DNA from: Candidatus Kutchimonas denitrificans
GTDB lineage: Bacteria > Gemmatimonadota > Gemmatimonadetes > Palauibacterales > KS3-K002
Direction of reading: 5' to 3'
DNA length: 64,000 bases
NCBI GenBank assembly: GCA_011774835.1
Contig: JAACAK010000113.1
Coordinates: forward strand, 5,029 to 69,028
Positions 11,371 to 29,365 of this stretch are shown piece by piece. The position numbers and the translations under genes are program-made. The first letter of the stretch is position 1. Each line of letters begins with the position of its first letter. The notes below the pieces were generated by a model, which did not search any database, was not told the DNA's origin, and was given only the letters and a program-made list of their open reading frames with translations.

Positions 11371-14016
11371 TCAGTAATGGAAGCGGAGCGAGACCCCGAA
11401 CGTTCGCGGCTGGTTGGTCAGGTAACCCACGCGGGCGAGGGTTCCCCGCTCCCGGTCCAGCGCCAGGAAGGCTCGCTCGTCCGTCACGTTGTTCGCGAAG
11501 ATCGCCGCCTCCCAATTCCCGCGGAGCAAGCCGACGCGCAGGTTGACGAGGTTGTACGCCGGCAACAACGGATCGAAGGTAAACGTGGTCTCCGTCAGCG
11601 GCCCACCTAGGGTGTTCGGTTCGAACGCGGTCAAGTCCACGGTACCGATGCCCGGCCGGTGGTCGCCGATCTCCGTGAAGCGCGAGCCGATGTGGTGGTA
11701 GGTCCCGGTGACGAAAGCCCGGGTCCCCCGACTCACCGGCCACTGATACGTGGCGGCGGCGGTCACCTGGATCTCCGGCACGCTGGGCAGGCGGTTCCCC
11801 TCCTCGATGCCCGATACCACGTTCCCGGCCCCGTCTAAGAAGGTCGAGCGCAGTTCGGAGTCGTTGAAGGCGGCCGCGACGGAAAAGTCGAAGTTATCGG
11901 TGGGGTTGGCCGTGACCTCTAACTCCACGCCCTGGCTGCGTGCGCTCTCCACGTTCAAGACCTTCCGGGAGGAGCACGTTCCCGCGGTCACGGTCAACTG
12001 GAGGTCGCTGATGTCCATGTAGAACGCGGACACGTTGAGCGAGGCGCGGCCGCCCAGCAGCCTCGACTTGGCTCCCACCTCGTAGTTCCACGCCGTCTCG
12101 TCTTCCCAAGTTTCCAGCGGGCTGAAAATCTCCAGATCCTCGGGCGTGCACAGCGGAACGTTGAGGGGATCGTTGATCCCGCCCAACCGGAACCCCCGCG
12201 ACGCCTGGGCGTTGAGGGTGAGATCCTCCGTCGCCTGGTAGCTGGCGATGAAGCGCGGTGCCAGGCCGTCGGCGTCGGTGGAGCCGGGCTGCGACACCAG
12301 CGAGTCTCCGGTGCCGTCGTTGCCGAAGATTCCGTCGAAGATCTGGTCGCGGTTCTCGTCGAAGTTGTAGTAGCGCAGTCCGCCGGTGAGCCTGAGCTGC
12401 TCGACCGGGGTCACGGTCGCCTCGCCGAAGACGGCGAACTGCTCCAGGTCGTAGTTCAGGTCGGAGAAGAACAGCTCGTCCTCCTGGGCCTGGAGCCCCT
12501 CGGTAAAGCCAGGCGGGGCGCCAAGCTCCGGCGCTGCCATCTCGTCAAACCCGAAGACGATTAGGCTCTGGCCGTATTCGCGTTTGTTGTTGCTGTAGAA
12601 GCCGCCGACCAGCCACTGGAGCCACTCGTTGCTGCCCGACAGCCGCACCTCCTGGGTGAACACCTTGCTGATCGTGGCGTCGTCCAGCGGTGAGTCGAGC
12701 GTGTAGATCGGCTCCGAGAGGCCGAGAGAGCCGCCGGTTATGCTGGAGGTCAGGGCGCCGGCGTCGCGCACCACCAGGATGTCGCGGTAGGTGTAGGACG
12801 TGACCGAGGTCAGGCTCGCCGGTCCGAAGTTGTACTCCAGGTTCAGATCGGTGAGCAGGAAATCATCGGTGAAGGGCTCCCCGATCTGGGTGAAGAGCTC
12901 GCGTTCGCCCAGGTTCACCGCGGGCCGTGTAGTGGTGAACGGGTTGGCCAGGATGTTGTAGTCGTCGATGCGGTTCCAGCCGTCCATCTTCACCCTCTGA
13001 TAGACGACTCGCGGAGTGATCGAGAAGCGTTCGTTCGGGACGATCCGAAACGCGGCACGCACGCCGGTCCGGTCGCCGCCGTTGACGTTCTCGTTGACAT
13101 CCAGGTTGGGCTGCACCGCGTCCATATAGCCGCCGATCCGGCTGCTGTAGCCCGCCACCCGAAAGGCCGCCTTGTCGCCCAGTGGCACGTTGGCGCCGAT
13201 CTTCGCGCTGTTGCCCGGGTCCCCCCCGTCGATCCAGTTGGCGCCCACCTCCCCGAAGACGCTGTACACGCCGAGCTCGGGCTGGTTGGTGATGTAGCGG
13301 ACGGTGCCGGACAGCGAGCCGGAGCCGAACAGGGTACCCTGCGGGCCGCGCAGCACCTCCACGCGGGAGACGTCGAACAGGTCCAGGTCAGGTGTGTACA
13401 GGGAGAGCGAGATGGCCGCGTCGTCCAGATAGGCGCCCACCTGCTCTTTCACGCCCGGCTGGTCCCGGGCGATCTGGCCCGAGGAGGCCCCGCGCATGGC
13501 GACCTGGCTCTGGCCGGGGCCCAGGTTCTGCACGCTGAACCCGGCCACGTTGGCTGCAACGGCCTCGATGTCCTCAGCACCCCGCGCCCGCAGGACGTCC
13601 CCGGTCGGGGCGGCGATGGAGAAGGGGACGTCGGCCAGCTCCTGCTCGCGGAGCATGGCGGTGACGATGATCTCGTCGAGCACCACCGGCCCCAACTCGA
13701 AGTCTACCGTGACCGTCTCGCCAGCCGCGACCTGAACGTCCCTCTGCGTCCGTCGGATTCCGATCAACGACGCGGAGACGGTGTACACGCCCGGAGCCAG
13801 GTCGCTGAAGGTGTAAGTGCCGTCGGCGGACGTGGTCGTGGTTCTGGAAGCGTCGGTGGCCTGGTTGGTCACCTCGACGGTGGCTCCCAGCACTCCGGCA
13901 CCGTCGGGGTCGCGTACCGTACCGGTGATCCGGCCGGTTTGCGCGTACGCCGGGACGCCATGAAGGACGACGGCCAGGGCAGCAAAGGCCAATAGCCGGC
14001 TCACGGGGCTAACCAT
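11371..14016 (-). CDS. TonB-dependent receptor with N-terminal carboxypeptidase-regulatory-like domain
   Basis: Signal peptide 'RLLAFAALAVVLHGVPAYA'. 'GRITGTVRDPDGAGVLGATVEVTN...DGTYTFSDLAPGVYTV'. Plug and barrel motifs, with an aromatic C-terminus '...SLRFHY'. The ATG at 14016 is preceded by GGGAGGG. Confidence 0.9.
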   Translation of the reverse strand: MVSPVSRLLAFAALAVVLHGVPAYAQTGRITGTVRDPDGAGVLGATVEVTNQATDASRTTTTSADGTYTFSDLAPGVYTVSASLIGIRRTQRDVQVAAGETVTVDFELGPVVLDEIIVTAMLREQELADVPFSIAAPTGDVLRARGAEDIEAVAANVAGFSVQNLGPGQSQVAMRGASSGQIARDQPGVKEQVGAYLDDAAISLSLYTPDLDLFDVSRVEVLRGPQGTLFGSGSLSGTVRYITNQPELGVYSVFGEVGANWIDGGDPGNSAKIGANVPLGDKAAFRVAGYSSRIGGYMDAVQPNLDVNENVNGGDRTGVRAAFRIVPNERFSITPRVVYQRVKMDGWNRIDDYNILANPFTTTRPAVNLGERELFTQIGEPFTDDFLLTDLNLEYNFGPASLTSVTSYTYRDILVVRDAGALTSSITGGSLGLSEPIYTLDSPLDDATISKVFTQEVRLSGSNEWLQWLVGGFYSNNKREYGQSLIVFGFDEMAAPELGAPPGFTEGLQAQEDELFFSDLNYDLEQFAVFGEATVTPVEQLRLTGGLRYYNFDENRDQIFDGIFGNDGTGDSLVSQPGSTDADGLAPRFIASYQATEDLTLNAQASRGFRLGGINDPLNVPLCTPEDLEIFSPLETWEDETAWNYEVGAKSRLLGGRASLNVSAFYMDISDLQLTVTAGTCSSRKVLNVESARSQGVELEVTANPTDNFDFSVAAAFNDSELRSTFLDGAGNVVSGIEEGNRLPSVPEIQVTAAATYQWPVSRGTRAFVTGTYHHIGSRFTEIGDHRPGIGTVDLTAFEPNTLGGPLTETTFTFDPLLPAYNLVNLRVGLLRGNWEAAIFANNVTDERAFLALDRERGTLARVGYLTNQPRTFGVSLRFHY

Positions 14017-14104
14017 AAGTCCCTCCCGGTTGGAAGGTTGAGCTGTGGATCGAATGGTACTCAATATGGTTAATGAACAGACGTGTCAACCCCGCGGCAT
14101 GGTG

Positions 14105-14176
14105 CCGAGTAGGAGTACGATCACCAGTACGAGTAAGGGGCCTCGTACTCTTATTCTTTATCGTATTCGTACTCGG
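14105..14176. repeat. Repeat family 3, copy A: GAGTACGA/TCGTACTC-rich imperfect palindrome
   Basis: ccgagtaggagtacgatcaccagtacgag-taagggg-cctcgtactcttattctttatcgtattcgtactcgg. It shares motif vocabulary with 30275-30451 and overlaps the 3' end of the Nudix gene. Confidence 0.7.
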
Positions 14177-14735
14177 ACGCGGTCCGTAGCCAGAGCAGCC
14201 CGATGATCGTCTTCGCGTCAACTAGCTGGCCGGACAGAAAATTCTGCCACAGCTCATCGGGCGACCGCTCGATCACCTTGATGTCCTCCTCGCCCACCCC
14301 CATCCCCACCTCGCGCTCGGCCTCGCCCGACACCTCGCCGTAATAAAGGATCACGCGTTCCGAGGTGCCGCCCGGCGAGACGTAGAAGGTCGCGATCCGA
14401 TCGAGGCGCTCGACCTCGTAGCCGGTCTCCTCGCGAACCTCGCGGACCATCGTCTCGTCGGGCGGCTCGTCCTCGACGCTGCCGGCCACGATCTCGGCCA
14501 TCCAGCCGGGCCCCTTCTCGAGGGTCGGGTAGCGGAACTGCTCGACCAGGATCAGGTCGCCGGTCTCGCGGCGGCGCAGCAGGGCGGCCACCGAGTCGCC
14601 GCGCTCGAAGCTGAGCTGGCGGATCGGCTCGCTCCAGCTGCCGTCGTGCTTGCGATGTTGGAGCAGCGCCTCGTCGATCTTGAAGATGTCGTCGAACACG
14701 CGACGCTTCTCGACCACTCGCACGCGTTCCATCAC
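14151..14735 (-). CDS. Nudix hydrolase (ADP-ribose / nucleoside-diphosphate-sugar pyrophosphatase-like)
   Basis: Nudix box 'GSVEDEPPDETMVREVREETGY'. The overall layout resembles NudF/NudK. Confidence 0.85.
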   Translation of the reverse strand: MMERVRVVEKRRVFDDIFKIDEALLQHRKHDGSWSEPIRQLSFERGDSVAALLRRRETGDLILVEQFRYPTLEKGPGWMAEIVAGSVEDEPPDETMVREVREETGYEVERLDRIATFYVSPGGTSERVILYYGEVSGEAEREVGMGVGEEDIKVIERSPDELWQNFLSGQLVDAKTIIGLLWLRTASEYEYDKE

Positions 14736-14781
14736 GGGCTCCAGGGCGTTGGGATGGGTTTTAGGTAGAGGTCGGGTGCGG

Positions 14782-15090
14782 CTACGCCTTCAGGTAGTCG
14801 GGAAACTTGTCCCGGAATTCGGGGAAATAGCGGCTGATCACGCTCACGTCGAATTTGCCGAGGATCGACTCTTTGGGCTCGCGGTCGAGCAGGAAGCGGA
14901 AAGCGGCCTCGATGCACTCCTCGGGGCTGGTGTCGTTCCCGCCCAGCTTGTGGTAGTCGTCCGATCCCATCGTGACGCGGTGCTGCGACTCGCTGTCCTT
15001 CTCCTTGACGGTGACCTGGAATTCGAACGGGTCGTTCTGGCTCACGGTAGTGACGTCTATCACAGCTTTCTTCCTTTTGCGCTTGAGCAT
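14782..15090 (-). CDS. Conserved-looking hypothetical protein (~102 aa)
   Basis: G/C-rich third codon positions. AGGAG lies 12 nt upstream of the ATG at 15090 (MLKRKRKK). It sits 47 nt upstream of the Nudix gene on the same strand. No family recognised. Confidence 0.5.
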   Translation of the reverse strand: MLKRKRKKAVIDVTTVSQNDPFEFQVTVKEKDSESQHRVTMGSDDYHKLGGNDTSPEECIEAAFRFLLDREPKESILGKFDVSVISRYFPEFRDKFPDYLKA

Positions 15091-15298
15091 GGGTCCGTTC
15101 ACTCCTGAAAGTGTCGATCAAATCAGCATCGTCGATCCGTCGGGGTTTGTCAAATGGCGGCCGCTCGGGACCGACGTGGGCAACCGGGCGCGAGGCGACG
15201 TGGTTCCCGGGCTGTGTTTCGGCGAGGCCCGAACGGTTATAGTTTTTGGCTCCCCCCCGTGCGATGCGACGCGCTGTAAGAGAGAGGCCTCCTATTAG

Positions 15299-17374
15299 AT
15301 GAGCCAGGATCTCGAGCCCAAACAGTACGGAGTCCGTCCGCCGCCCGAGCTCAACCCGCGAACCGACCCTGTGCTCGACTTCCCCGACGCCGACTACGGC
15401 GAGCTCGAGCCCGAGGATTACCGGACCCTGGGGTTCATGTCGGGTCTCGAAGTCCATCAGCAGTTGCTCACGAGATCGAAGCTCTTCTGCCGTTGCCCGG
15501 CGGGCCGCTACGTGGACGAGTACGACGCCGAGGTGCTGCGCCACATGCGGCCGACGCTGAGCGAGCTGGGCGAGTACGACGGCACGGCGCTGATGGAGTT
15601 CAAGACGCGGAAGGAGATCGTCTACCAGCTGGAGCGGGGCTCGGTCTGCACCTACGAGATGGACGACACTCCGCCGTTCGAGATCGACGGAGAGGCGGTA
15701 CGGATCGCCATCGAGATCGCCGAACTCCTCGACCTCAACCTGGTCTCCGAGCTCCACGTGATGCGGAAGCAGTACCTGGACGGATCGATCCCGACCGGGT
15801 TCCAGCGAACCGCGATGGTCGGGCTGACCGGGACGATCCCGTTTCGGGTCCCGGAGCTGGGTGTGAACCGCGAGCTGCGCATCCGGCAGCTGTCGCTGGA
15901 GGAGGATGCTTGTCGGGAGATCGCCGACGTCGGGCACTACATCACGTTCCGCACCGATCGGCTGGGCATGCCGCTCACCGAGACGGTGACCGAGCCGGAT
16001 CTGGCGAACCCGCTCGAGGTGCAGGCCGCCGGTCGGCTGCTGGCCCGGGTGGTGCAGGCGACGGGGAAGGTGCGGCGCGGGCCGGGCGCGGCGCGGCAGG
16101 ACGTGAACGTGTCGGTGGCGGGCGGCCGGCGGATCGAGATCAAAGGGGTGGACAACCATCGTAACCTGCCGCGCCTGGTCCACGTCGAGGCGTACCGGCA
16201 GCTGAACCTGCTGCGGGTGCGGGCCGAATTGCAGAATCGAGGCGTCGATCCCGAGATGCTGACGGTTCCGGAGACCGGGCTGCCCTGGGAAGTCACCCCG
16301 CATGCCGTCGACGCGGCCTCGGCGGTCAGCCCGTGCGAGTACGCGCCGATCCGCGATGCGCTGGAACGCGAAGAGAAGGTGATCGGCGTGCGGCTGCCGG
16401 GATTCGGCGGCCTGCTGGGCCACCGGACCCAGCCGGGCGTGACCTTCGCCCGGGAGTTCGCCGATCGGATCCGCGTGATCGCTTGCCCGGTCCATCGGCC
16501 GTTCATCATCCATTCCGATTTGACCGACTACGGGCTCGACCCCCGACAGTGGCGGGCCCTGAGCAAACAGCTCCGGGTCGAGCAGGGCGACGTGATGGTG
16601 GTGGTCTGGATGCCGGAGTCCGACGCGGCCACCGCGGTGCGGGAGATCTTCATCCGGGCTCGGGAGGCGCTGGTCGGGATCCCGGCGGAAACGCGGCAGG
16701 CGTTCAGCGACGGGACCACGGGGTTCGAGCGGATCCTACCGGGCCCCGACCGCATGTACCCGGACACCGACACGCCGCCGGTGCGGATCCGCGACGAGCT
16801 GGTTCTCGAGGTCCGGGAGGGTCTGCCGGAGACGCCGTGGGCGCGTGAATCACGCTACGAGGCGCTGGGGCTCGACCCGGAGCCGGCGCGGCGTCTGGCT
16901 GCGGCACCCTGGGCGGAGCTGTTCGACGCCCTGGCGCCCGCGCCGGGTGCCCCGGCCCGCCGGTTCGCCGACGTGCTCGAGACACGGATCCCGCACCACC
17001 GCCGGAACGGCGCCATCGACTATCTGCCGTCGGCGCAACGTCTCGACCCGCTGGTCCGTGCGGTGGAGAGCGGCGCGATTCGCCCGGAGGCGATGGAGCG
17101 GGCCCTAGACGATCTGATCGACGCGCCCGATCGGTCGGTCGATAAAGTGCTGGCACCGTATCGCCCGGGGCCGGATGACGACGCCGAGCTCGAGCGTGCG
17201 GTCGCGGACGCCGCCGCTCGTGCCGAGGCGCTGGCGGGCAAGCCGGCGGAGGCGGTGTTGCGCTGGGCGATGGGCGAGGTGATGCCCCGATTTCTGGGCC
17301 GGGTCGATCCGTCCCGGGTGCGGCAACGCTTGATCGCAGCGCTGCAGCTGGCCGGAACGGAGGTGGCCGGATGA
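15299..17374 (+). CDS. gatE: Archaeal-type Glu-tRNA(Gln) amidotransferase subunit E
   Basis: 'YRTLGFMSGLEVHQQLLTRSKLFCRCP' matches the GatE N-terminus. GatB/YqeY-like tail 'LRWAMGEVMPRFLGRVDP'. About 690 aa. The stop overlaps the gatD start (ATGA at 17371-17374). Confidence 0.8.
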   Translation: MSQDLEPKQYGVRPPPELNPRTDPVLDFPDADYGELEPEDYRTLGFMSGLEVHQQLLTRSKLFCRCPAGRYVDEYDAEVLRHMRPTLSELGEYDGTALMEFKTRKEIVYQLERGSVCTYEMDDTPPFEIDGEAVRIAIEIAELLDLNLVSELHVMRKQYLDGSIPTGFQRTAMVGLTGTIPFRVPELGVNRELRIRQLSLEEDACREIADVGHYITFRTDRLGMPLTETVTEPDLANPLEVQAAGRLLARVVQATGKVRRGPGAARQDVNVSVAGGRRIEIKGVDNHRNLPRLVHVEAYRQLNLLRVRAELQNRGVDPEMLTVPETGLPWEVTPHAVDAASAVSPCEYAPIRDALEREEKVIGVRLPGFGGLLGHRTQPGVTFAREFADRIRVIACPVHRPFIIHSDLTDYGLDPRQWRALSKQLRVEQGDVMVVVWMPESDAATAVREIFIRAREALVGIPAETRQAFSDGTTGFERILPGPDRMYPDTDTPPVRIRDELVLEVREGLPETPWARESRYEALGLDPEPARRLAAAPWAELFDALAPAPGAPARRFADVLETRIPHHRRNGAIDYLPSAQRLDPLVRAVESGAIRPEAMERALDDLIDAPDRSVDKVLAPYRPGPDDDAELERAVADAAARAEALAGKPAEAVLRWAMGEVMPRFLGRVDPSRVRQRLIAALQLAGTEVAG

Positions 17375-18768
17375 CCGAGGCAACGCACGACCTGTACAAG
17401 GGCTACCGCGGTCCCTGCCTCGAGGTGATGAAGCGGTTCGGAATCACGGTCTGGTGCGAGGTGAGGGCGGAGACGACACGGGGCACGTTCGAGGGTCTGT
17501 TGTTGCCGCGCTCCGAGACCAGCGACGACCTCCATCTGGTTCTGAAACTGGGCAGCGGGTACAACATCGGAGTGCGGCATGACACGGTGCGCTCGCTGGA
17601 AAAGATCGGCTACCGGGAGGCCCACTATCAGATACCGGAGAAGGAGTTCCCCACCGATCCGGTGAAGCCCAGCGTGAAGCTCTTCGGCACCGGCGGCACC
17701 ATCGCCTCGCGCCTCGACTACCGGACCGGCGCGGTCATCCCGGCGTTCAGCCCGGGCGAGCTCTACGGGTCGGTCCCGGAGCTGGCGGAGATCTGCAACC
17801 TGGAGACCGAGAAGCTGTTCGGCGTCTTCTCGGAGAACATGGGCCCCGAGCAGTACCTGCGCCTGGCGGAAGAGGTGGGCGGAGCGATCCGCGAAGGGTA
17901 CGACGGGATCGTCATCGGGCACGGCACCGACACGATGCACCACACCGCCGCCGCGCTGAGCTTCATGGTGCAGCGGCCCCCCGTGCCCATCGTGATGGTG
18001 GGCAGCCAACGATCATCGGACCGGCCGTCGTCCGACGCGGCGCGGAACCTGATCAACGCCTGCTCGACCGCCGCCAGCGGACCCATCGCCGAGGTGATGG
18101 TCTGCATGTTCGGGCCGACCTCCGACCGGTACAACCTGCTGCACCGCGGGACCCGGGTCCGCAAGATGCACTCGTCGTACCGCAGCACCTTCCGCACGCT
18201 GGGCGACATACCGCTGGCGATGGTGCAGGACGGTGAGATCACGCCGCTGAAGCACGGCTATAGACCGCGCCGGGACGATCGCGAGGTCACCGTGCAGGCG
18301 GCCTTCGAGGAACGTGTAACCATAGCCTACTACTATCCCGGCATGCATCCGGATATGATCGACGCGCTGGTCGAGAAGGGGTACAAAGGGATCGTGATCG
18401 CGGGCACCGGGCTGGGCCACGTCAACCGCAGGATCTACCCGGCGCTGGAGCGGGCTCACGCCGCGGGCGTCCACATGTACATGACGCTCCAGACGCTGTG
18501 GGGCTTCGTGCAGATGCACGTGTACGAGACGGGGCGCGAGATCCTGCAGCTGGGCGTGGTACCGCTGGCCAACATGCTGCCCGAGGTCGCGTACATCAAA
18601 CTGGGTTGGGCGCTGGGCGTGCACCCCGACGAGCCCGACGCGGTCCGCGAGCTGATGACCGCGACGATCGCCGGCGAGATGACCGAGCGCGAGCCGCACG
18701 ACGGCTATCTGATATTTCAGGGCGGGGTTCCCGAGGTCCAGGAATTCCTCGAGAAGATCTGGCGATGA
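17371..18768 (+). CDS. gatD: Archaeal-type Glu-tRNA(Gln) amidotransferase subunit D (asparaginase-fold glutaminase)
   Basis: GatD-specific N-domain 'TFEGLLLPRSETSDDLHLVLKLGSGYNIGV'. Asparaginase catalytic motifs 'LFGTGGTIAS' and 'GHGTDTMHHTAAALSF'. Confidence 0.85.
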   Translation: MTEATHDLYKGYRGPCLEVMKRFGITVWCEVRAETTRGTFEGLLLPRSETSDDLHLVLKLGSGYNIGVRHDTVRSLEKIGYREAHYQIPEKEFPTDPVKPSVKLFGTGGTIASRLDYRTGAVIPAFSPGELYGSVPELAEICNLETEKLFGVFSENMGPEQYLRLAEEVGGAIREGYDGIVIGHGTDTMHHTAAALSFMVQRPPVPIVMVGSQRSSDRPSSDAARNLINACSTAASGPIAEVMVCMFGPTSDRYNLLHRGTRVRKMHSSYRSTFRTLGDIPLAMVQDGEITPLKHGYRPRRDDREVTVQAAFEERVTIAYYYPGMHPDMIDALVEKGYKGIVIAGTGLGHVNRRIYPALERAHAAGVHMYMTLQTLWGFVQMHVYETGREILQLGVVPLANMLPEVAYIKLGWALGVHPDEPDAVRELMTATIAGEMTEREPHDGYLIFQGGVPEVQEFLEKIWR

Positions 18769-20165
18769 ACATGACGCGCAGGAGCGACACACCACCGCGG
18801 CCGGGCGGCCGGTTCGAAGAAGAGCTGGGGAAGCCGCGTTCCGAATGGACCCTGGACGACGTGCTCGAGCTGGCGGACCGGCATCGGATCGTGCTGCTCA
18901 GCCTGATGCACGTGGGGGGCGACGGCTGGCTCAAGGCGCTGGATTTCGTGCCCGGCGGCCGCGACCACCTGCGAGACATCGTTCAGGGCGGCGAGCGCGC
19001 CGACGGCTCCAGCCTGTTCCCGGATACGGGAATCCCGACCGGCGCTTCCGACATCGTGCTGCGCCCCCGGCTCGACACCGGCTTCATCGATCCGTTCGCC
19101 CCGCGCCCGACGCTGGTCCTCATGTGCGGTCACGCCGACCGGGACGGCGCGCCCCTGCCGCAATCGCCCGACACGATCGTGCGGCGCGCGTTCGCTCGTC
19201 TGAAGGAAGAGACGGGCATCGAGCTGTGGGGGCTGGGCGAAGTCGAGTACTTCCTGGGCAAGCGCTGGGACGAGACCGACATCTACGGCGCCGACGATCG
19301 CGGCTACCACGCCACCGCGCCCTTCGTTTTCGGTGAGGAACTGCGCCGGGAAGCGATGGGGCTGCTGCGTGATATCGGTGTCCCGGTGAAGTACGGCCAC
19401 AGCGAGGTCGGCTACATCGAGGCGCGGGAGACCGAAGGCGTGATCTGGGAGCAGCACGAGATCGAGCTCGGCCTGGCGCCGCTGCCCGCCGCCGCCGACG
19501 CCATCCTGCTGGCCCAGTGGGTTCTCCGCAATCTGGCGCAACGGAACGGGATGCGCTGCAGCACCGATCCGATGATGCTGGAGGGTCACGCCGGTAACGG
19601 CCTCCACTTCCACTTCGCGCCGATGCAGAACGGCAGAAACGTGCCGATCCGCGAGGGCGATTCCAAGCTCTCCGACCCGGCACGCTGGCTCATCGGCGGC
19701 CTGGTCGAGATGGGTGAAGCGCTGATGGCCTTCGGCAACCGGGTGGAGGGATCGTTCGCGCGACTGAACCAGGCGAAGGAGGCGCCGAACCGGATCTCCT
19801 GGGGCGAGTTCGACCGCAACGCGCTCGTCCGCTTGCCGATCACCGCGACCGATCAGGCCGGGCGACAGGTCACCATGCCCACGATCGAGTTCCGTTTGCC
19901 CGACGGCTCGGCGTTGCCACACCTGCTGATGGCCGGTGTGGCCGTGGCGATGCTGCAGAGCCGAAAGAGCGGCGATCTGGACGAGCTCCTGCAGCGCACA
20001 TCGGCCTCGGCGGCAGCGGCGGCGAGGGACGGCGTGTCGCGGGTCCCTCGCAGCTTCGCCGAGGTGGCGGAGGCGCTGACGCGACACCGGGCCAGCCTCG
20101 AGGCGAGCGGTGCGTTTCCGGCCACGCTCCTGGACCGCACGATCGCGCGACTGACGAACGGTTAA
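18765..20165 (+). CDS. Glutamine-synthetase-family (GS catalytic domain) protein, ~466 aa
   Basis: 'KYGHSEVGYIE...WEQHEIEL', 'GNGLHFHFAP' and 'IEFRLPDGSALPHLLMAG' correspond to GS catalytic motifs. The ATG at 18765 overlaps the gatD stop (ATGA). Confidence 0.75.
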   Translation: MNMTRRSDTPPRPGGRFEEELGKPRSEWTLDDVLELADRHRIVLLSLMHVGGDGWLKALDFVPGGRDHLRDIVQGGERADGSSLFPDTGIPTGASDIVLRPRLDTGFIDPFAPRPTLVLMCGHADRDGAPLPQSPDTIVRRAFARLKEETGIELWGLGEVEYFLGKRWDETDIYGADDRGYHATAPFVFGEELRREAMGLLRDIGVPVKYGHSEVGYIEARETEGVIWEQHEIELGLAPLPAAADAILLAQWVLRNLAQRNGMRCSTDPMMLEGHAGNGLHFHFAPMQNGRNVPIREGDSKLSDPARWLIGGLVEMGEALMAFGNRVEGSFARLNQAKEAPNRISWGEFDRNALVRLPITATDQAGRQVTMPTIEFRLPDGSALPHLLMAGVAVAMLQSRKSGDLDELLQRTSASAAAAARDGVSRVPRSFAEVAEALTRHRASLEASGAFPATLLDRTIARLTNG

Positions 20166-20247
20166 CGCGGAACCGCGGGTTGACTCTCGGGTAACAGAGT
20201 CTCCCGTCCCGGAGCCTCCCCGTAATCTCATCCCACGCGTAGCTCCC

Positions 20248-23200
20248 ATGCTTCGAGAGACCGTCTCGTTCGTCGTTTTGCTCCTGCCCGCGCTCTACAC
20301 CTGGTGGCACGGTCGCCGGTTGGTTCGGCGGATCGACGATCCGGCGTTCCCGGAACTGAGAATGGCCGGGAGTCAGCGGCTGTTCCTGGTGGTCTTCGTG
20401 TCGGCCGCGGTGGCGCTGGTCATCAGCTGGCGGTTCCCCGCGGCGAAGGTCGCGGTTCTCGCGATCTCGTTGATCGTCGCCCGCTTCCCGGCTCGACGCC
20501 AGATCTACAACGAGACGTGGGGGCTGGCGGGATACGCGGCACACGTGATCCGACTGGTCGTGGCCTTCTTCGGGGTGTGGCTCGTCCTGGCGGCCGCTCC
20601 GGCCATCGTCCGCGGGTCGGGATCCGCCGGTCTGCCGGTCGCGTTGGGCGTGGCGGTCCTGCTCGTCGCCTGGAATCACTTCGGCTCCGAACTGATCCCC
20701 CGGGTCCTGGGGGCCGAGCCGCTGCGTGACGCAGCGCTCGAGCGGGAGTTCGAAGCGGTCCAGAGCGAGCTGCGCTGTCCGCGACCGCGCCTGCTGAGGC
20801 TCGATACCGGCGGCGGCTATTGGGTCAACGCGCTGGCGCTGCCCGACTACCGGCGTCCGGCCGTCCTGTTCACCGATGATCTGCTGAGGGCGCTGACGCC
20901 TGCCGAGACCACGGCGATCTACGCGCACGAAGCGGCGCACCTCGAGTACTTCAATCGACGGCGGCTTCTCTTACGCGAGCTGATCGTGGTGATCCTCGCC
21001 GGCTTTTCGGCGCTCGCGGCGTTCGTGCCGGGGATCGATTCGGCGTTCTTCGGCTCGCTCGTGTGGGCTTGGCCGCTGGCGGTCCTGCTGGCACTGTTCG
21101 TCCTGGCGGCGGGGAACCAGGCTCGCGAGCACGACTGCGATGTGCGGGCCGCCCAGCTGACCGGCGACGCGGAAGCCGTGGTCTCTGGGCTAACGCGCAT
21201 CCACGATCTGATGCGGATGCCGCGCCGCTGGCGGTCGGGCAGCGAGAGGAGGGTCTCGCACCCGAGCCTGGCCAACCGAATTCGCGCGATCCGCGATGCG
21301 GCCGGCCTGGGCCCGGCTGAAGAAAAGAATCGTGAAGTCGTCCGAACGGAGCTGACCGTCCGCTCCGCCGTCGATCCCAGCGAAGCGGTGATGCTGGGGA
21401 CGGATCGGATCCACTTCCTCCGCGGCCTCGATCCGGAAAGCGATCTGGATCCGGCGCGAGTCTTGGACGAAGCGGCGGAAAGCCGGTCGATTCGATACAG
21501 CGACCTGACGGACGTTCGCCTCGAGGTCAGCGGCCCGCGCGACCGGTACCTGACCGCGGTCGACCGCGACGGCCGCAAGCAGAGGTTGGCGCTTCGGTCG
21601 GAGGACGTGGCCCGGGTCAAGGCGCATCTGGAGCAGATCGATCTCGAGGTGTCCGGCACCGCGCCGGCCCGAGCGCGCGAGCTGGCGCGAGAGGCGGCGG
21701 CACGGGGTCGCGGCAGGCTGGCGGCGGCCATCGTGGCGCTGTTCAACCTCTACCCGTTCTCCTTCGTGGCGCTGCTGATATCGAGCCTGGCCGTCTGGCG
21801 GCCGACCCGGGCCACCCTGGCGGCCTGCGGAGCGATGGCGTTCGTCGGCGGCCTGATCGGGTACCGCACCGGTGGCGGCTTCCTTTTCGGACAGGAAGGA
21901 GTCGCGCTGGTCGCCGCGATCGAGGCCCTCGCCGGGATCGTTCTGCTTCACGGGGCCGTGAGGTTGCGCGGCCAGGAGATGGACGAGGGTGGGGCGTGGA
22001 AGCTGACCGTCACGGCGCTCCTGGGAATGAGCGTTCTCTATTCCCTCGGCGCACTCGCGCGCCTGGCGGGCCCGAACGTGATCACTCAACTCCACCTGTG
22101 GGCGCGACACGAACAGGGTCTGACGCTGGCGCTGGTGGGACTCAGCGCGGCGCTCCTGGGCCTCGGTAAGCGAAAGGCCCGAGTGCCGGCGCTCGTCACT
22201 TCCGCCGTCGCCCTCCTGACCCTCGCGGTCGGCAGCCTGGCGTTTCAGGCCCGGTTCGGTGACGATCCGCTGTCGGTCGAACGGCCGGTGCGACCCGGGC
22301 AACCACTCACCCCGGCTCGCACCCGCCTGCTGGAATGGGAAGAAGGCGTCGCGGGGCTTCGCCTCTCACCGTCGGGGAATCGGCTGGCCGTTCTGAGTTA
22401 CCCGTTCAATGCGAGCTACGAGGGGCGGTTCGGCGGCTATCGGGTGGAGCTGGACGATGGCAGCTTCCGCTCGATCGACGCGGTCGACCTCGCGTTCCTG
22501 GACGACGATCGGGTGGCGGCGCTGGCCCACGATGAGATCGGGAGACTATCGCTCCGGATTATCCGGTTGAATCCGTCGCCGGCCACCGAGCGGGAGATCC
22601 TGCTGCGGCTTGTACCGGATCCCGTGCTGCGGGTGAGTCCGGAGCTGAACCGGTGGCAGGTGTCGAGCGAGGACGTCCGGGCCGGCGGGGCCACGCTGCA
22701 GTTCGGCGCCCTCGATGGCGGCGAGGTGGAGAGCGTGGAGTGGAAGTACCCAGAGACCTCTGAATCCGTGGTGATCGGTTTAACACCGAGCGCGATGGGG
22801 ACTGCGCTGGCGATCGGGAGCCGCTATTCCTACGGTGGGTTGAGCTACTTCGCCGCCTGGCTCGGCATGTTCGGCGTTTACGCGATGCCCATCGAGCTTT
22901 GGGCGGTGAGCGATTCTTCCGCCACTTCCCTCGCCGTGACCGTTCAATCGGTCTGGTGCGTCGACGCTCCCCCCGATCGGGCCGACATCATCTGCGGATC
23001 GAACCTGCGCGACATCGCGACGCGGATATGGTCGATCGAGCCGGATGCGAGCGCGATGAGGCTGGTGGCCGCGGTCCCCGGCTTTTATCGCGCCGGCGAA
23101 CTGGGAAGCGGCGATCGGCTGCTGCTGAGCGGGTACAACGTTCCACCGCTGCTGACCGACCTTGCCACCGGAGACGTACACCCGTTGTTCCTGGAGTTGG

Positions 23201-23391
23201 AAATGGAGCACGCGGCGCACGACGAGACAGCTGCGGACGGCGGTGCGGCATCGCCTCTCGGTTTGCTGTTCGAATCGGCTCCCTCGATCCCCTATTTCCA
23301 GGCGTTTGCCGTTGCGAAGGAGCACATCGCGGTTGCAGCCTGGCGCGACTCGGGATCCACCCTCGCCGTATACCGGCTAACCGATAGGTAA
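20248..23391 (+). CDS. Polytopic-membrane M48-family zinc metalloprotease fused to a large C-terminal extracytoplasmic domain (1047 aa)
   Basis: HEXXH 'IYAHEAAHLEY' with downstream 'NQAREHDCDVRAAQLTGD' (M48 pattern). There are many hydrophobic helices on both sides. The C-terminal ~400 aa are non-membrane and unassigned. Confidence 0.65.
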   Translation: MLRETVSFVVLLLPALYTWWHGRRLVRRIDDPAFPELRMAGSQRLFLVVFVSAAVALVISWRFPAAKVAVLAISLIVARFPARRQIYNETWGLAGYAAHVIRLVVAFFGVWLVLAAAPAIVRGSGSAGLPVALGVAVLLVAWNHFGSELIPRVLGAEPLRDAALEREFEAVQSELRCPRPRLLRLDTGGGYWVNALALPDYRRPAVLFTDDLLRALTPAETTAIYAHEAAHLEYFNRRRLLLRELIVVILAGFSALAAFVPGIDSAFFGSLVWAWPLAVLLALFVLAAGNQAREHDCDVRAAQLTGDAEAVVSGLTRIHDLMRMPRRWRSGSERRVSHPSLANRIRAIRDAAGLGPAEEKNREVVRTELTVRSAVDPSEAVMLGTDRIHFLRGLDPESDLDPARVLDEAAESRSIRYSDLTDVRLEVSGPRDRYLTAVDRDGRKQRLALRSEDVARVKAHLEQIDLEVSGTAPARARELAREAAARGRGRLAAAIVALFNLYPFSFVALLISSLAVWRPTRATLAACGAMAFVGGLIGYRTGGGFLFGQEGVALVAAIEALAGIVLLHGAVRLRGQEMDEGGAWKLTVTALLGMSVLYSLGALARLAGPNVITQLHLWARHEQGLTLALVGLSAALLGLGKRKARVPALVTSAVALLTLAVGSLAFQARFGDDPLSVERPVRPGQPLTPARTRLLEWEEGVAGLRLSPSGNRLAVLSYPFNASYEGRFGGYRVELDDGSFRSIDAVDLAFLDDDRVAALAHDEIGRLSLRIIRLNPSPATEREILLRLVPDPVLRVSPELNRWQVSSEDVRAGGATLQFGALDGGEVESVEWKYPETSESVVIGLTPSAMGTALAIGSRYSYGGLSYFAAWLGMFGVYAMPIELWAVSDSSATSLAVTVQSVWCVDAPPDRADIICGSNLRDIATRIWSIEPDASAMRLVAAVPGFYRAGELGSGDRLLLSGYNVPPLLTDLATGDVHPLFLELEMEHAAHDETAADGGAASPLGLLFESAPSIPYFQAFAVAKEHIAVAAWRDSGSTLAVYRLTDR

Positions 23392-23719: not shown

Positions 23720-26700
23720 CTAGGCGCTCGGCTCGGATGGGGCTGGACGGGCCAGCTGACGAACGCGGACTGCCCGGTCCTTGGCGTAGCGGGAAAGAAC
23801 ACGTTCCGCCTCGGGGTCCTCGATCTGCCTGAGTGCCATGGCGGCGGTCGCCCGGACCTGGTCGTCCCAGCGCCGGCGGAAGAACGGAGGCGAGCGCTTG
23901 CCGAGGACCCTGCCCAACACATCGATGCCGGCCGGGCTGCCGATCTCGCCCAGGGCCTGACAGCAGGCGATCGCGACTTTCGGCTCTTCGGTCTCGTCGA
24001 GGATCTTGCCGAGCTCCTCCACGGCCGTTGCGGACCGCAGGTGGGCGATGCTGCGAATCGCGCCTTTGGCGACGGACGCGTCCTGGTCCCGGGCCAGCGG
24101 GAGGATCGTGTCGATCAGGTCGTCCTGGTGCAGCCGCTCGAACAGCCGGAAGGCGGCCCGGCGGATCTTGGCGCTGCTATCGCCGAAGCTGTAGATCAGC
24201 TCATCGCGAAGATCGCGAGTGACCGTGTCGATGACCTCGAGGATCCGGAACCGCTGCTCGACTGTGACCTCGGTCGCCACGGCGCGCTTGATGCCTCGCG
24301 CGGCTTCCTGCCCGTGTTCGGCGAGCAGCGACGCCGCCACCTGCCGGACCCGGAAGTCCTTCTCGTCCTTGATGACCTGGATCAGCAAGGGGATGCTGGA
24401 CCGCCCCAGGCTGCCAAACACCTGAGCTGCCCGTTCCTGGCGGTCGGCGCGCCCCGAGCTGAGATCGTCCTTGAGCAGCTCCAGCGCCGTCGGGTCGAGC
24501 CTCCGGTCGAGGAGACGGGCGAGTCCCCCGCGACCGTCGCTCGACCGCTCCAGCCCCTCCTGGCGCTCCTTCAGCTCCATCAGGATTCGACTCGCCGTCT
24601 GATAGTCGGCGAAGTACAGGCAGGAGCCCGACATGGCGTAAAGGACGGCGGCGAGCTCCTGAAGAACTCGCGGCTCGTTCTCCTCGGCCAGCGCCCGGAG
24701 CAGCGGCTGCGCGGCCAGTTCGGTGAACTTGTGCTGGAGACCGAGGATCAAGCCGTCGAGCAGAGCGCGGCAGGCGAGCACGGTCAGCTCGCGATCGGCG
24801 GGATCGTCTCTCTGGAAATCGCCGAACAGTTGCTTCAGCAGCCGCTCGAGCAGCCCGTGCTCGCCCTTGACCAGCAGCTCCTTTCCGAAGCGGGGCAGGG
24901 CATCGCGCAGCGCGTCCTCGGGCTCCTCCACCATCTGCGCGGCCAACCGCGCCGCCGCGTCGTCCTCGACGGGTTCCTCTTCGACCTCGACCTCGATGGC
25001 GCTGAGCATGGTCTGCACGACGCCGGCAGCGTACTGCCGCTGGTTGAAGGCGATATAGTCGAGGCCCTTCTCGCGTACCAACGAGTCCCAGAAGTCGGCC
25101 TCGTACCCCGTATCCGGCGGATCGTGTAGCGCCCCAACGACGGAGAGCAGTTCGCCCTTGGGCAGCCCGGCAGAGAAGGTGAGGCTGCTGAGCCCGACCG
25201 ATTCCATGAGATCCACCACGGCGACGGCCAGCGGGGCGAAGCCGGTGGTGTCGATGCGCGAACCGTTGACCAGCAGGAGCCGGTCCGCGCGGGCGAGCGT
25301 CAGCGCCGGCTGATGGCCGAGAACGTTCATCAACGCGTCGTACAGCTGATCGACGGAGCGAGAGACCTGATTGCTCTCCAGCGGATAGAGCCGGGCGTTT
25401 TGCGCGGTGCCCTGAAGGTGGCGAAGGATCCGGGGGATCTCGGCCAGCTCCTCCGGCCCCAGCTCCTCCTCCTCGATGACCGGCTGCCGGATCGTGGCCC
25501 GCGCTTTCTTGCGGCGCAGACGGGAGTAGCGGACCTGGCGGAGCTCGATGTGCTCGAGGGCGTGCTGCTCGGCGAAGCTGCGCCAGTATCCCTGCTCGAT
25601 CGCGCCGAACTTCAGCTTGCCGAGGGCCATCAGCAGGGCACGGATCTCCTCCCGTGTGACGCCCCTTCTGAAGATGATCCCCTGCAACTCGGCCCGGGTG
25701 AGCAACCCGATGAACGACTTGGCGAGCATGCTGTAGCGAGAAACCTCGAGCCGCTGGCCGTTGGCCAGCAGCGCCCTCTGGGCATGTGACAGATGCAGCT
25801 CGTCGTTCTTCTCCAGGATGATGTCGACGGCATCGTGCACGTCGCGGAGCGCGTCGGCGATGGTCCGGCTCTCCGGCGGATACAGTTGGATGTTGCGGAC
25901 CGCCGACATGAAGGTGCGGAGCACGTAGGGTACCCGTGGGACGCTGTCGGGGGTTAGACGGCGCTCCGCCTCGGTCTCGACCTCGACGAGTTCCTCGGTG
26001 TACACGGCGGCCTCGTTGGGATCGAAGACGTTGTCGCTGAATCGTGTCTGGATCTGTTCGTAACGCCGGGCCTTCTCCTGGTTCGCCGAGCGCCTGAAGT
26101 GATAGGCGAGCAGTGAGGCGGAGGGAAGCAGACGCTGCTGGTACAGGTTCTCCTGGTAATCGCCGATCTGCCGGTGCAGCTCCTGGCGCCGCGAGCTGTC
26201 TATGTTGCCGTACGTGATGTCGAGCACTCGCTTGCCGAGGAACCGCATCACCTCGTCGTTGACCTGGAAATCGAGGCTGACCAGGCCGAGCGTCTCTGCC
26301 CGATCGAGGAATTCCAGCACCCGGTTCTCATCCAGTTCGGAGGCGCCGGCCAGCAGGCTGAGCGAGACGCCCTCGCCGAGGGTCGACGCGTGCTCGAGCA
26401 GGGAACGTTCCTGTTCGTCGAGCGCCGCGATCTTCTGCTTGACGATCTCTTCCAGCGAGCGCGGCAGATAGCCGTCCTCCAGCGGCTCGATCACCCACTC
26501 CTGGCCGACCAGGCTCACCTTGCCATCGTGGACCAGCTTGCGGATGATCTCGCCGAGGAACAGCGGGTTGCCCTGGGTGATGTCTGCCAGGTCGTCCTCG
26601 AACGAATCCGGCGTGCGGAGACGTGGAAAGACCGCCTTGAGGTACTCGCTGATGCCGCCTACGGTGAGGGGCTTCAGCTTCACGCGCCGGATCGCGAGGT

Positions 26701-28021
26701 CTTCGCGGCGTGCGGCGCAGAAGCGCTCGAGCGGCGGCGCCTCCTCCTCACCGCTCAAGCGCAGCGTCTCCACCGAGGTCCCGCAGATCAGGACGGAGAT
26801 ATCCGGCGACTGCATCAGCACACCCAGGAGGAGCAGGGTCGCCTCATCGGCGAACTGGAGATCGTCGATCAGCAGGACGAGGGGCCGGTAATCGGCGGCC
26901 CGGGGAAGCACGCGGGCCAACGTCGAGAAGATGGCGCGCCGGCGACCCGTGTCGTCGGGGATCGGCCGTCCCTCGCCGGCCCCCAGCTGGGGCAGGATGT
27001 AGCCGAGGTTGTCGATCTCCTCGCCGGTCAGCTCCTCCACTAGCGCGGCGCCGCGGTCCTCGCGCTGGTTGAACAGCGCGAGGAGGATGCCCGTGCTCAG
27101 GTAGTAGGGGCGGTAACCCTCCTGCGAGTCGCCGGAGGCGCGAGCCACGCAAAAGGTGTCATCCCCGACCAGGTTGCGGCGAACGGCTTCCAAGAAGGTC
27201 GTCTTACCCATTCCGGGTGCCGCCTCGACGAGGAGAAACTCGCTCTGTCCTCGGGTCAGCGACTCGAGCGTGTCGGAGACGACGGCCATCTCCTCGTCGC
27301 GGCCGGCGATCCCCGTCGCCTTCAGGCGGTAGAGCGCGGTCTTCGGAAAGACCGTGGCGGGGTCGACTTCCGAGAAGGCCGCCGCCTGGTTCTTTCCCGC
27401 GTGCTTGGCGTGGAATAACGCCGTGTCCGCGGCCTGGAAGAGCTCCTTGCTGCTGGAGGCGTCTTGGGGGGCCGTGGCGAACCCGATGCTCAGGCTGATT
27501 GGTACGCTGACGTCGGCGTCGCGCAGCCTGAACGGCCGGTCCTTGGTCCTTTGCAGCAGGCGATCCGCCATCTCACGGGACGCGTCGGTGCCGGCCTTCG
27601 GCAGGAGCAGGATAAACTCGTCGCCGCCGTAGCGTATCGGCAGAGCGTGCTCTCCCCCGACCTCTCTGAGCAGAGTGGCCATCCAGAGCAGCGCCTGGTC
27701 GCCGGTCTCGTGCCCGTGGGTATCGTTGATCTCTTTGAAGTGGTCGAGGTCGATCATGAGCAGCGACAGAGGGAAGTCGTCGTCGCGCTCCCAGCGTATC
27801 CTGTGTTCGAGGTAGCTCAGGAAGAAGCGCCGGTTGTGGATCCCGGTAAGCTCGTCCTCGAAGATGAGACGCGAGGGGTCTTTCCCCACGTGCTCGAGGA
27901 GATCTATGAGGTCCGTGTGCTGCATGCGGCTACGCCATGCCGAAACATCCAGCGGATTAGCGGAATAAATGGCTGTCCCCCGGGCCCGAATGTACGTCAT
28001 CCGCGGCAAGAGGGAGGGCAT
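23720..28021 (-). CDS. Giant signalling protein: GGDEF diguanylate cyclase + AAA/STAND-type NTPase + long helical region + C-terminal HEAT repeats
   Basis: 'DELTGIHNRRFF...LLMIDLDHFKEINDTHGHETGDQAL...IRYGGDEFILLLP'. Walker A 'LVEAAPGMGKTTFLEAV'. HEAT/PBS-lyase-like 'ACCQALGEIGSPAGIDVLGRVL'. An alternative start is the ATG at 27925 (MQHTDLI). Confidence 0.85.
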   Translation of the reverse strand: MPSLLPRMTYIRARGTAIYSANPLDVSAWRSRMQHTDLIDLLEHVGKDPSRLIFEDELTGIHNRRFFLSYLEHRIRWERDDDFPLSLLMIDLDHFKEINDTHGHETGDQALLWMATLLREVGGEHALPIRYGGDEFILLLPKAGTDASREMADRLLQRTKDRPFRLRDADVSVPISLSIGFATAPQDASSSKELFQAADTALFHAKHAGKNQAAAFSEVDPATVFPKTALYRLKATGIAGRDEEMAVVSDTLESLTRGQSEFLLVEAAPGMGKTTFLEAVRRNLVGDDTFCVARASGDSQEGYRPYYLSTGILLALFNQREDRGAALVEELTGEEIDNLGYILPQLGAGEGRPIPDDTGRRRAIFSTLARVLPRAADYRPLVLLIDDLQFADEATLLLLGVLMQSPDISVLICGTSVETLRLSGEEEAPPLERFCAARREDLAIRRVKLKPLTVGGISEYLKAVFPRLRTPDSFEDDLADITQGNPLFLGEIIRKLVHDGKVSLVGQEWVIEPLEDGYLPRSLEEIVKQKIAALDEQERSLLEHASTLGEGVSLSLLAGASELDENRVLEFLDRAETLGLVSLDFQVNDEVMRFLGKRVLDITYGNIDSSRRQELHRQIGDYQENLYQQRLLPSASLLAYHFRRSANQEKARRYEQIQTRFSDNVFDPNEAAVYTEELVEVETEAERRLTPDSVPRVPYVLRTFMSAVRNIQLYPPESRTIADALRDVHDAVDIILEKNDELHLSHAQRALLANGQRLEVSRYSMLAKSFIGLLTRAELQGIIFRRGVTREEIRALLMALGKLKFGAIEQGYWRSFAEQHALEHIELRQVRYSRLRRKKARATIRQPVIEEEELGPEELAEIPRILRHLQGTAQNARLYPLESNQVSRSVDQLYDALMNVLGHQPALTLARADRLLLVNGSRIDTTGFAPLAVAVVDLMESVGLSSLTFSAGLPKGELLSVVGALHDPPDTGYEADFWDSLVREKGLDYIAFNQRQYAAGVVQTMLSAIEVEVEEEPVEDDAAARLAAQMVEEPEDALRDALPRFGKELLVKGEHGLLERLLKQLFGDFQRDDPADRELTVLACRALLDGLILGLQHKFTELAAQPLLRALAEENEPRVLQELAAVLYAMSGSCLYFADYQTASRILMELKERQEGLERSSDGRGGLARLLDRRLDPTALELLKDDLSSGRADRQERAAQVFGSLGRSSIPLLIQVIKDEKDFRVRQVAASLLAEHGQEAARGIKRAVATEVTVEQRFRILEVIDTVTRDLRDELIYSFGDSSAKIRRAAFRLFERLHQDDLIDTILPLARDQDASVAKGAIRSIAHLRSATAVEELGKILDETEEPKVAIACCQALGEIGSPAGIDVLGRVLGKRSPPFFRRRWDDQVRATAAMALRQIEDPEAERVLSRYAKDRAVRVRQLARPAPSEPSA

Positions 28022-29325: not shown

Positions 29326-29365
29326 CGGGCCGTTTGAACGCGATGATGATGAGGTGGCCGTCGGT

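Follow-up and report, generated by a model that had tools for sequence, protein, structure and literature searches.

Archaeal-type gatE and gatD genes in bacteria are coupled to a divergent glutamine synthetase gene and alternate with asnA at one chromosomal site

The window analyzed here is a 64,000-nucleotide stretch of DNA from Candidatus Kutchimonas denitrificans, a soil bacterium of the phylum Gemmatimonadota (GenBank assembly GCA_011774835.1, contig JAACAK010000113.1, positions 5,029 to 69,028 of the forward strand). Its subject is a run of three overlapping genes: gatE, gatD, and a gene of the glutamine synthetase (GS) family. The first two genes are intact and, judged by their sequences, give this bacterium a tRNA-dependent amidotransferase of the archaeal type. 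In one set of lineages the trio forms an operon that is conserved and translationally coupled; its linkage is facultative, and neither partner depends on the other. In near-isogenic genomes, the slot upstream of GS holds either gatE-gatD or asnA, the gene for aspartate-ammonia ligase, and never both. The reading that we tentatively favor, with slightly less than even confidence, is that the operon encodes a functional amidotransferase fed by a cotranslated GS, and that it probably supplies Asn-tRNAAsn, and hence asparagine, rather than serving the Gln-tRNAGln route.

An earlier, sequence-only reading of this DNA held that the first two genes are true orthologues of GatE and GatD rather than a GatB and a plain asparaginase, and both profile scores and alignments to solved chains bear this out. 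GatE scores 503.8 bits against the NCBIfam equivalog NF003107 (cut-off 456) and 434.9 bits against TIGR00134 (cut-off 319.6), whereas GatB models give at most 151 bits against cut-offs of at least 315. It aligns over its whole length with the solved chains from Pyrococcus abyssi (1zq1_C, 328 bits) and Methanothermobacter thermautotrophicus (2d6f_C, 297 bits). Among Pfam families, GatB_N is matched and GatB_Yqey is borderline (26.0 bits, cut-off 27); the putative aspartyl-tRNA synthetase (AspRS)-like insertion reaches 21.6 bits on GAD (cut-off 23.4), and this region aligns full length with the insertion of 1zq1_C. The magnesium ligands of GatE are His15, Glu157, and Glu184 in M. thermautotrophicus numbering, and their mutation abolishes the activity of the archaeal enzyme (PMC2330236). 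The motifs that carry them are kept here as GLEVHQQL (residues 49–56), LEEDA (200–204), and MPLTETVTEPD (224–234); FCRCP occupies residues 63–67. The positively charged loop of the GatE cradle is also present, reading KRGLG in archaea and RRGPG here.

GatD is equally well defined. It reaches 497 bits on TIGR02153 (cut-off 324), with plain asparaginase models far under their own cut-offs, and it matches Pfam GatD_N (45.6 bits, cut-off 25.7), Asparaginase, and Asparaginase_C. For both subunits the archaeal comparison consists of pairwise identities to two archaeal structures; GatD is 49% identical to P. abyssi 1zq1_A (398 bits) and 48% identical to M. thermautotrophicus 2d6f_A (395 bits), and the archaeal pair shares 57% identity. 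Its catalytic motifs GTGGTIAS (106–113), HGTDTM (184–189), RSSDRPSSDA, and RVRKMH align with the archaeal ones, and the motifs of the nucleophilic Thr and of the Thr-Asp-Lys triad are retained. Indeed, every motif that had been quoted from the sequence for GatE, GatD, and GS is present. Across many bacterial assemblies, identity amounts to 76–86% for GatD and 62–75% for GatE, which indicates strong purifying selection.

It is useful to set this enzyme beside archaeal GatDE (2D6F, 1ZQ1). Both consist of two subunits whose domains come in the same order, and the two bacterial subunits exceed their equivalog cut-offs. GatD joins its own N-terminal domain to a type I asparaginase fold with the Thr and Thr-Asp-Lys motifs, and GatE has a cradle with His/Glu/Glu magnesium ligands, the AspRS-like insertion, which is probable in the bacterial protein, a helical domain, and a YqeY-like tail. 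In contrast to archaeal GatDE, the host here is bacterial, glutaminyl-tRNA synthetase (GlnRS) and asparaginyl-tRNA synthetase (AsnRS) occur in relatives, and the GatE tail motifs are replaced. GatE also has a 39-residue N-terminal extension, and the genes are translationally coupled, in one lineage also to GS, and are interchangeable in situ with asnA. Reviews describe GatDE as an "archaeal signature protein" found "exclusively in archaea," with Glu-tRNAGln as its only substrate (PMC2330236, PMC2811023). The bacterial system thus departs from described GatDE in its host domain, its coexistence with GlnRS, its tail motif, and its genomic partners. Full-text literature searches found no paper on bacterial GatDE, on a GatDE-GS module, or on a relationship between GatDE and asnA, in keeping with the initial impression that no such module had been described. 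In GenBank, bacterial genes are already labeled GatE and GatD by automatic annotation.

Archaeal contamination or an assembly chimera would explain such genes trivially, and we give this explanation practically no credence. The surroundings had been described as bacterial, and they are: a TonB-dependent receptor, a NUDIX hydrolase, and an HtpX/M48-like protein flank the trio, other flanking genes of the window encode phosphoenolpyruvate carboxykinase (PEPCK) and a tricorn-type protease, and G+C content is even along the window at 0.62–0.73. The gatE-gatD-GS order recurs in dozens of independent assemblies from Gemmatimonadota, Eisenbacteria, Acidobacteriota, and other bacteria, closed chromosomes included, and bacterial GlnRS and AsnRS genes lie close by in relatives. 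A 136,770-bp contig recorded under the name "Gemmatimonadetes bacterium" encodes proteins 100% identical to those of the trio. No point in favor of a chimera was found, and on composition and recurrence we rule it out.

The commonest replacement of gatE-gatD upstream of GS is asnA. In Gemmatimonadota, synteny is the same in both types of locus: a NUDIX gene on the minus strand, the variable element, GS, the M48-like gene, and the gene for a GGDEF protein. When the asnA-type locus L018 (closed chromosome CP070812.1; loci in other genomes are given L numbers) is compared with the gatE-gatD-type loci L016 and L012, DNA identity is 84–91% on both flanks, and GS is 93% identical as a protein. The sole difference is the cassette that the flanks enclose, which measures 1.56 kb with asnA (L018, 8414–9970) and 3.7 kb with gatE-gatD (L016, 6333–10036). 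This exchange looks like a cassette swap by recombination. The 93% identity of GS across the two types implies that GS has undergone no partner-specific adaptation. In a neighbor-joining tree of GS, gatD-type and asnA-type loci are repeatedly intermixed, both inside Gemmatimonadota and among the loci of Eisenbacteria, Acidobacteriota, and Planctomycetota. When one cassette cleanly replaces another at the same site, repeatedly and in near-isogenic backgrounds, this is a classic sign that the two are equivalent in function, and it suggests that gatE-gatD and asnA are such cassettes. No asnA was found within the fetched flanks of any of the 30 gatD-GS loci scored, and no contig is common to the GatE and AsnA matches listed, those of AsnA reaching down to 80% identity. 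The closed genome CP070815.1 carries AsnA and is not among the GatE matches listed.

Further observations concern the slot and AsnA itself. The same slot, from NUDIX to GS, holds asnA in L011, L014, and L026 and gatE-gatD in L012 and L020. AsnA scores 292.2 bits on TIGR00669, just below the cut-off of 292.8; the protein (L011 8623–9840, L018 8676–9806; P0391–P0510) has 376 amino acids against 330 in the model, with an N-terminal extension of about 45 amino acids. It is at least 79% identical across matches named Gemmatimonadota, Zixibacteria, Glassbacteria, Planctomycetota, and Deltaproteobacteria, a level of identity across phyla that suggests either strong constraint or recent spread.

The second line of evidence on the substrate is the presence of direct synthetases beside the trio. 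At four loci (L024, L031, L034, L040), a GlnRS gene shares the contig of the trio and lies 7–9 kb downstream of it; these proteins of 569–580 amino acids were found by tblastn with E. coli GlnRS as the query, score 739 bits on the glnS equivalog, and are 55–58% identical to E. coli GlnRS. In the closed chromosome CP070823.1 (L005/L017, one genome), a gene 4.3 kb upstream of gatE encodes an AsnRS of 434 amino acids, which scores 552 bits on NF003037. Some trio-bearing bacteria, at least, can thus form Gln-tRNAGln and Asn-tRNAAsn by direct charging, and GatDE in these bacteria cannot simply fill its archaeal role. The rule that GatDE belongs to Archaea whose genomes lack GlnRS, and is their sole route to Gln-tRNAGln, does not hold here, given bacterial contigs and closed chromosomes and GlnRS on the contigs of four relatives. 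Searches of the window and of 60 loci yielded no tRNA gene, and no AspRS gene appeared in the DNA fetched around the loci. A tblastn search with GatE found no GatB-like gene in the 1.3 Mb of fetched loci, a result that says little about whole genomes. As for the GlnRS proteins themselves (L040 19040–20782, L024 14437–16146, L031, and L034), their best match is the "GlnRS/YqeY fusion" model NF011291 at 950 bits; the match spans profile positions 13–568 of 769, and the protein is without the YqeY tail.

There is precedent for an amidotransferase that persists next to both synthetases. Thermus, Deinococcus, and Bdellovibrio have GlnRS and AsnRS and keep an amidotransferase that they are reported to use for forming asparagine on tRNAAsn (PMC2330236, PMC4206432). 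Like the GatCAB that serves asparagine only in Thermus thermophilus, Deinococcus radiodurans, and Bdellovibrio bacteriovorus, the enzyme described here stands beside both direct synthetases, and by analogy its proposed role would be the same, to form asparagine on tRNAAsn with the amide of glutamine. It differs in being a GatDE, with an asparaginase-type glutaminase, and in that its role as an Asp-tRNAAsn amidotransferase is putative.

The third line of evidence is the GatE tail. In archaea, the tail motif GXXAXGX (GMGAMGL/P) is implicated in telling Glu-tRNAGln from Asp-tRNAAsn, that is, in rejecting the latter (PMC2811023). Archaeal GatDE rejects Asp-tRNAAsn through the tRNA, by way of the 1–72 base pair and positions 19 and 20 of the D-loop, and not through the amino acid (PMC2330236). 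When 121 bacterial GatE tails were aligned with two archaeal sequences, none of the 121 kept the archaeal motif; in its place stands x[ED]x[VL][LM]RW, with R in 114 and W in 119. The window's GatE reads PAEAVLRW, and the G, A, and G positions of the motif are all lost. Moreover, archaeal GKADG has become G[RK]xDP in bacterial GatE, with a proline as in the GatB motif GKANP. The altered tail fits a changed tRNA specificity and is a candidate determinant of it.

The route that we favor can be set out in steps. By homology, GatE would phosphorylate the side-chain carboxylate of a mischarged aminoacyl-tRNA, and GatD would free ammonia from glutamine (or asparagine) and pass it to GatE, where the amide would form. 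GS would make the glutamine that GatD consumes (Glu + NH3 + ATP -> Gln). Since GS is translationally coupled to gatD, GatD's glutamine would be made alongside it, and the coupling could give the pathway high-affinity access to ammonia. The substrate would probably be Asp-tRNAAsn, alone or besides Glu-tRNAGln. On this basis, gatE-gatD with GS would be a glutamine-dependent and tRNA-dependent route to asparagine, the counterpart of the ammonia-dependent AsnA found in the same slot of sister genomes. E. coli has two nonhomologous asparagine synthetases, the ammonia-dependent AsnA and the glutamine-dependent AsnB. By analogy with this duality, asnA and gatE-gatD with GS would be ammonia-dependent and glutamine-dependent alternative cassettes; in contrast to it, the glutamine arm here would act on tRNA-bound aspartate, and the equivalence is drawn from gene context. 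A substrate other than Glu-tRNAGln was one of two ideas put forward from the sequence. It gains weight from the co-occurrence of GlnRS and AsnRS with the trio and from the alternation of gatE-gatD with asnA at one site. More broadly, the bacterial GatDE clade is large and includes Gemmatimonadota, Eisenbacteria, some Acidobacteriota, and others. It may have been re-purposed as a glutamine-dependent Asp-tRNAAsn amidotransferase, possibly dual-specific, with gatE-gatD and asnA serving as interchangeable, recombination-swapped alleles for asparagine supply beside a dedicated GS family; we lean somewhat toward doubting this wider proposal, while regarding it as a real possibility.

Several points weigh against an asparagine role, and some of them speak directly for the canonical one, in which the enzyme would be a Glu-tRNAGln amidotransferase working with a nondiscriminating glutamyl-tRNA synthetase (GluRS), as the main route or in parallel to GlnRS, with GS supplying the glutamine. 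All GatDE enzymes characterized so far are strictly specific for Glu-tRNAGln (PMC2811023). On profile hidden Markov models, the bacterial proteins reach equivalog level as GatE and GatD, with their catalytic residues conserved, and conservation extends to the cradle loop that is supposed to read the first base pair. The AspRS-like insertion, which has been modeled to clash with a class II nondiscriminating AspRS in a transamidosome (PMC2330236), appears to be retained in GatE; it fits the transamidosome of GluRS and not that of AspRS. The adjacent GS lends the operon a glutamine theme. The synthetases are seen in some subclades only, neither of them in this window, so that the GlnRS evidence comes from relatives and not from the window's own genome. 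In addition, the mutual exclusion of asnA and gatDE within a genome rests on contig-level data and one closed genome, and alternation in situ suggests equal function but falls short of proving it. We nevertheless regard the canonical role as unlikely, though it is the rival that we take most seriously. GlnRS shares a contig with the trio in four relatives, and the GlnRS-bearing bacteria that have been studied are reported to use their amidotransferase for asparagine and not for glutamine (PMC4206432). The archaeal tail motif is lost, and a canonical role leaves unexplained why asnA replaces gatE-gatD at the identical site in near-isogenic genomes.

The alternation with asnA offers a concrete, testable hypothesis of a change of tRNA specificity in an amidotransferase. 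It also bears on how indirect pathways to amide aminoacyl-tRNAs evolve and spread between domains and on how they persist beside direct synthetases. The accompanying GS family is of interest in its own right: in phyla that are abundant in soil, it forms an uncharacterized branch of an enzyme central to nitrogen assimilation.

The third protein is a real, deeply divergent, ammonia-using glutamine synthetase, catalytically complete as judged by its residues and by its predicted fold. It scores 135 bits on Pfam Gln-synt_C and weakly, at 26 bits, on Gln-synt_N, and it is 21–27% identical to solved GS structures. An AlphaFold2 model (predicted local distance difference test 83.4, predicted TM-score 0.88) superposes on subunits of type I GS (GSI) with TM-scores of 0.76–0.81. 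The motifs HSEVG, EQHEIE, GNGLHFHF, and IEFRLPD are present. In an alignment with nine family members and E. coli GlnA, a reference sequence that agrees with the Protein Data Bank alignment, 16 of the 17 positions that bind metal, ATP, glutamate, or ammonium are conserved: D50, S53, E129, E131, Y179, E212, E220, G265, H269, H271, R321, E327, R339, R344, E357, and R359. The ammonium-site residues D50, S53, Y179, and E327 are thus kept, together with all metal ligands, the arginines, and the Glu327 flap. The sole changed ligand is N264 (E. coli numbering; residue 276 of the window's GS), which lies in the GDNGSG loop of standard GS and is Ala or Pro family-wide. The protein therefore shares with GlnA of the GSI-alpha and GSI-beta types the Gln-synt_N and Gln-synt_C domains, the GSI fold, all metal ligands, and the arginines for ATP and glutamate. 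It differs from GlnA in the change of N264 to Ala, in the absence of the adenylylation site Tyr397 (Ser in the window, variable across the family), and in having about 10 extra residues inserted between the motifs of E212 and E220; its usual neighbors are gatD or asnA, not glnB or ntr genes. The sequence-only reading was to count as refuted if GS turned out to be a standard GlnA that lies next to unrelated genes in relatives. Unrelated neighbors do occur, but the protein is not a standard GlnA: on the GlnA equivalog TIGR00653 it scores 152.3 bits, under the cut-off of 429.15.

The window's GS belongs to a family separate from GlnA, and a large one: its relatives among clusters of 90% identity exceed 1,000, and a search of the 50% library gave 105 representatives at E<=1e-30. 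Two giant proteins, P0251 (4424 amino acids) and P0291 (2757 amino acids), contain six and four separate GS-family stretches, respectively. An apparent fusion of AsnA to GS (P0242, 790 amino acids) was rejected; its N-terminal 338 residues look like the product of a mis-called start on low-complexity, off-frame sequence.

How often the partners travel together was assessed by scanning for GS in one genome per GTDB species. The scan gave 80 loci (Gemmatimonadota 46, Acidobacteriota 18, Eisenbacteria 8, Planctomycetota 3, and a few others), and the gene upstream of GS was classed by tblastn with the window's proteins and AsnA. Directly upstream lie gatD at 28 loci, asnA at 19 (14 in the same direction and 5 divergent), and unrelated genes at 22; the other 11 loci have too little sequence. 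At 41 of the 69 determinable species-level loci, then, GS occurs without gatDE, and at 28 of the 69 it has gatD upstream. Where the sequence reaches far enough upstream, almost every gatD-type locus carries gatE too. Among loci whose alignments extend to the protein ends, the stop of gatD overlaps the start of GS as in the window in at least 12 (L005, L008, L012, L013, L016, L017, L020, L021, L024, L031, L034, and L040). Conversely, gatE-gatD occurs without GS on the long contigs L087, L088, and L089 and at L004. Relatives of GatE at 64–75% identity number at least 120; those with a source name are from Gemmatimonadota and are already annotated "GatE."

These counts bear on the proposal that GatD, GatE, and GS form an obligate physical machine, in which glutamine or activated ammonia would be channeled from GS to GatD and transamidation would be ammonia-dependent. 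The sequence-only reading had seen a dedicated three-protein unit in the tight coupling of the genes, and this part of it did not hold. GS without gatDE (41 of 69 loci) and gatDE without GS (L087–L089 and L004) are both widespread, and an obligate three-protein machine of this kind is not supported. Type I GS enzymes are large dodecamers whose active sites are buried, and the near-identity of GS between asnA-type and gatE-gatD-type genomes means that no partner-specific surface has evolved. The proposal does draw on the two ATGA overlaps, on the retention of the gatD-GS overlap in so many loci, and on the chromosome CP070722.1, where gatD and GS are still joined although the adjacent gatE is truncated. 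On balance we consider it improbable.

The chromosome just mentioned, a closed metagenome-assembled genome, has two loci, L001/L030 (7627–11419) and L004 (10001–13500). One holds a full gatE-gatD without GS and the other a 5′-truncated gatE followed by gatD and GS. Over 266 residues, the truncated gatE matches the full copy at 88% amino acid identity; between the gatD copies, identity is 96% in amino acids and 92% in nucleotides. Masked runs of N adjoin both loci, as they adjoin the loci with truncated or missing gatE in CP070722.1 and CP070792.1. The double locus may reflect either a recent duplication or redundancy of strains within the assembly. L004/L030 and L023 were considered as natural cases of gatD-GS without gatE, and they are viewed with caution in view of the adjoining N-runs and the 92% DNA identity of the gatD copies. 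Separately, eight Acidobacteriota loci (L067–L069, L075, L077, L079, L084, and L086) have a GS of this family without gatD or asnA. There, GS is followed by a convergent CN-hydrolase gene (nitrilase/amidase superfamily) and an MFS transporter gene (clusters c7 and c16), and the CN-hydrolase is thus another amide-metabolism neighbor of GS.

Finally, GatDE might amidate a substrate outside translation, either an aminoacyl-tRNA destined for cell-envelope or natural-product synthesis or a carboxylate that is not on tRNA. Such a role could account for the apparent redundancy with GlnRS and AsnRS, and both the altered tRNA-binding tail and the family-wide change of N264 in GS count in its favor. We think it very unlikely, since no biosynthetic genes are conserved around the pair, whose flanks vary among lineages, and since the full tRNA-binding architecture of cradle, insertion, helical domain, and tail appears to be kept. 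Conservation across phyla is very high, as is usual for core metabolism.

The three reading frames are intact and lie where they were originally placed (Table 1), and reading the sequence confirmed both ATGA overlaps.

Table 1. Features of the trio and its surroundings, in window coordinates
Feature	Coordinates	Strand	Description
gatE	15299..17374	+	691 aa; tRNA-dependent kinase/transamidase subunit; cradle domain, probable AspRS-like insertion, YqeY-like tail
gatD	17371..18768	+	465 aa; asparaginase-type glutaminase subunit; GatD-specific N-terminal domain
GS gene	18765..20165	+	466 aa from ATG at 18765; divergent type-I-like glutamine synthetase
gatE stop/gatD start ATGA overlap	17371..17374	+	read in sequence, ...GGCCGGATGACCGAG
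GGAGG	9 nt upstream of gatD start	+	read in sequence
gatD stop/GS start ATGA overlap	18765..18768	+	read in sequence, ...TGGCGATGAACATG
GatE tail segment PAEAVLRWAMGEVMPRFLGRVDP	17243..17311	+	GatE residues 649-671; tail alignment
NUDIX hydrolase (YffH/AdpP family)	14151..14735	-	TIGR00052 103 bits; left edge of gatE-gatD/asnA slot
HtpX/M48-like membrane protein	20248..23391	+	1047 aa, multi-pass; HEAAH motif; context only
TonB-dependent receptor	11371-14064		upstream flank
GGDEF + AAA_16 + HEAT protein	23720-28021	-	1433 aa; after HtpX/M48-like gene

The NUDIX gene is a conserved, divergently oriented upstream neighbor that is also found in L004, L005, L006, L012, L014, L016, L018, and others. 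The HtpX/M48-like protein matches HtpX models weakly (33 bits) and has orthologues downstream of GS in L016, L020, L026, and L037. Both this 1047-residue protein and the 1433-residue GGDEF protein are syntenic with GS in related Gemmatimonadota (clusters c27 and c4). An Rfam search of 14000–20400, in which a T-box or glutamine riboswitch was sought upstream of gatE, gave no family at E<=1. Comparison of 12 upstream regions of gatE revealed no conserved leader, and promoter and terminator signals did not rise above chance. A 106-amino-acid open reading frame (14782–15102, minus strand), with a G+C content at third codon positions of 0.87 and no NCBIfam match, lies between the NUDIX gene and gatE. 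Near GS at two other loci are transfer-messenger RNA genes with the tag peptide ANDNLALAA (L072 7–363 and L080 8356–8714, both on the minus strand). Farther downstream in the window, a protein of the ornithine carbamoyltransferase (OTCase) family with an N-terminal extension of about 90 amino acids is followed by a carbamate-kinase-like amino-acid kinase (28075–30280, plus strand) and then by PEPCK (30466–32154). The first two may form a catabolic pair for carbamoyl-phosphate or ureides.

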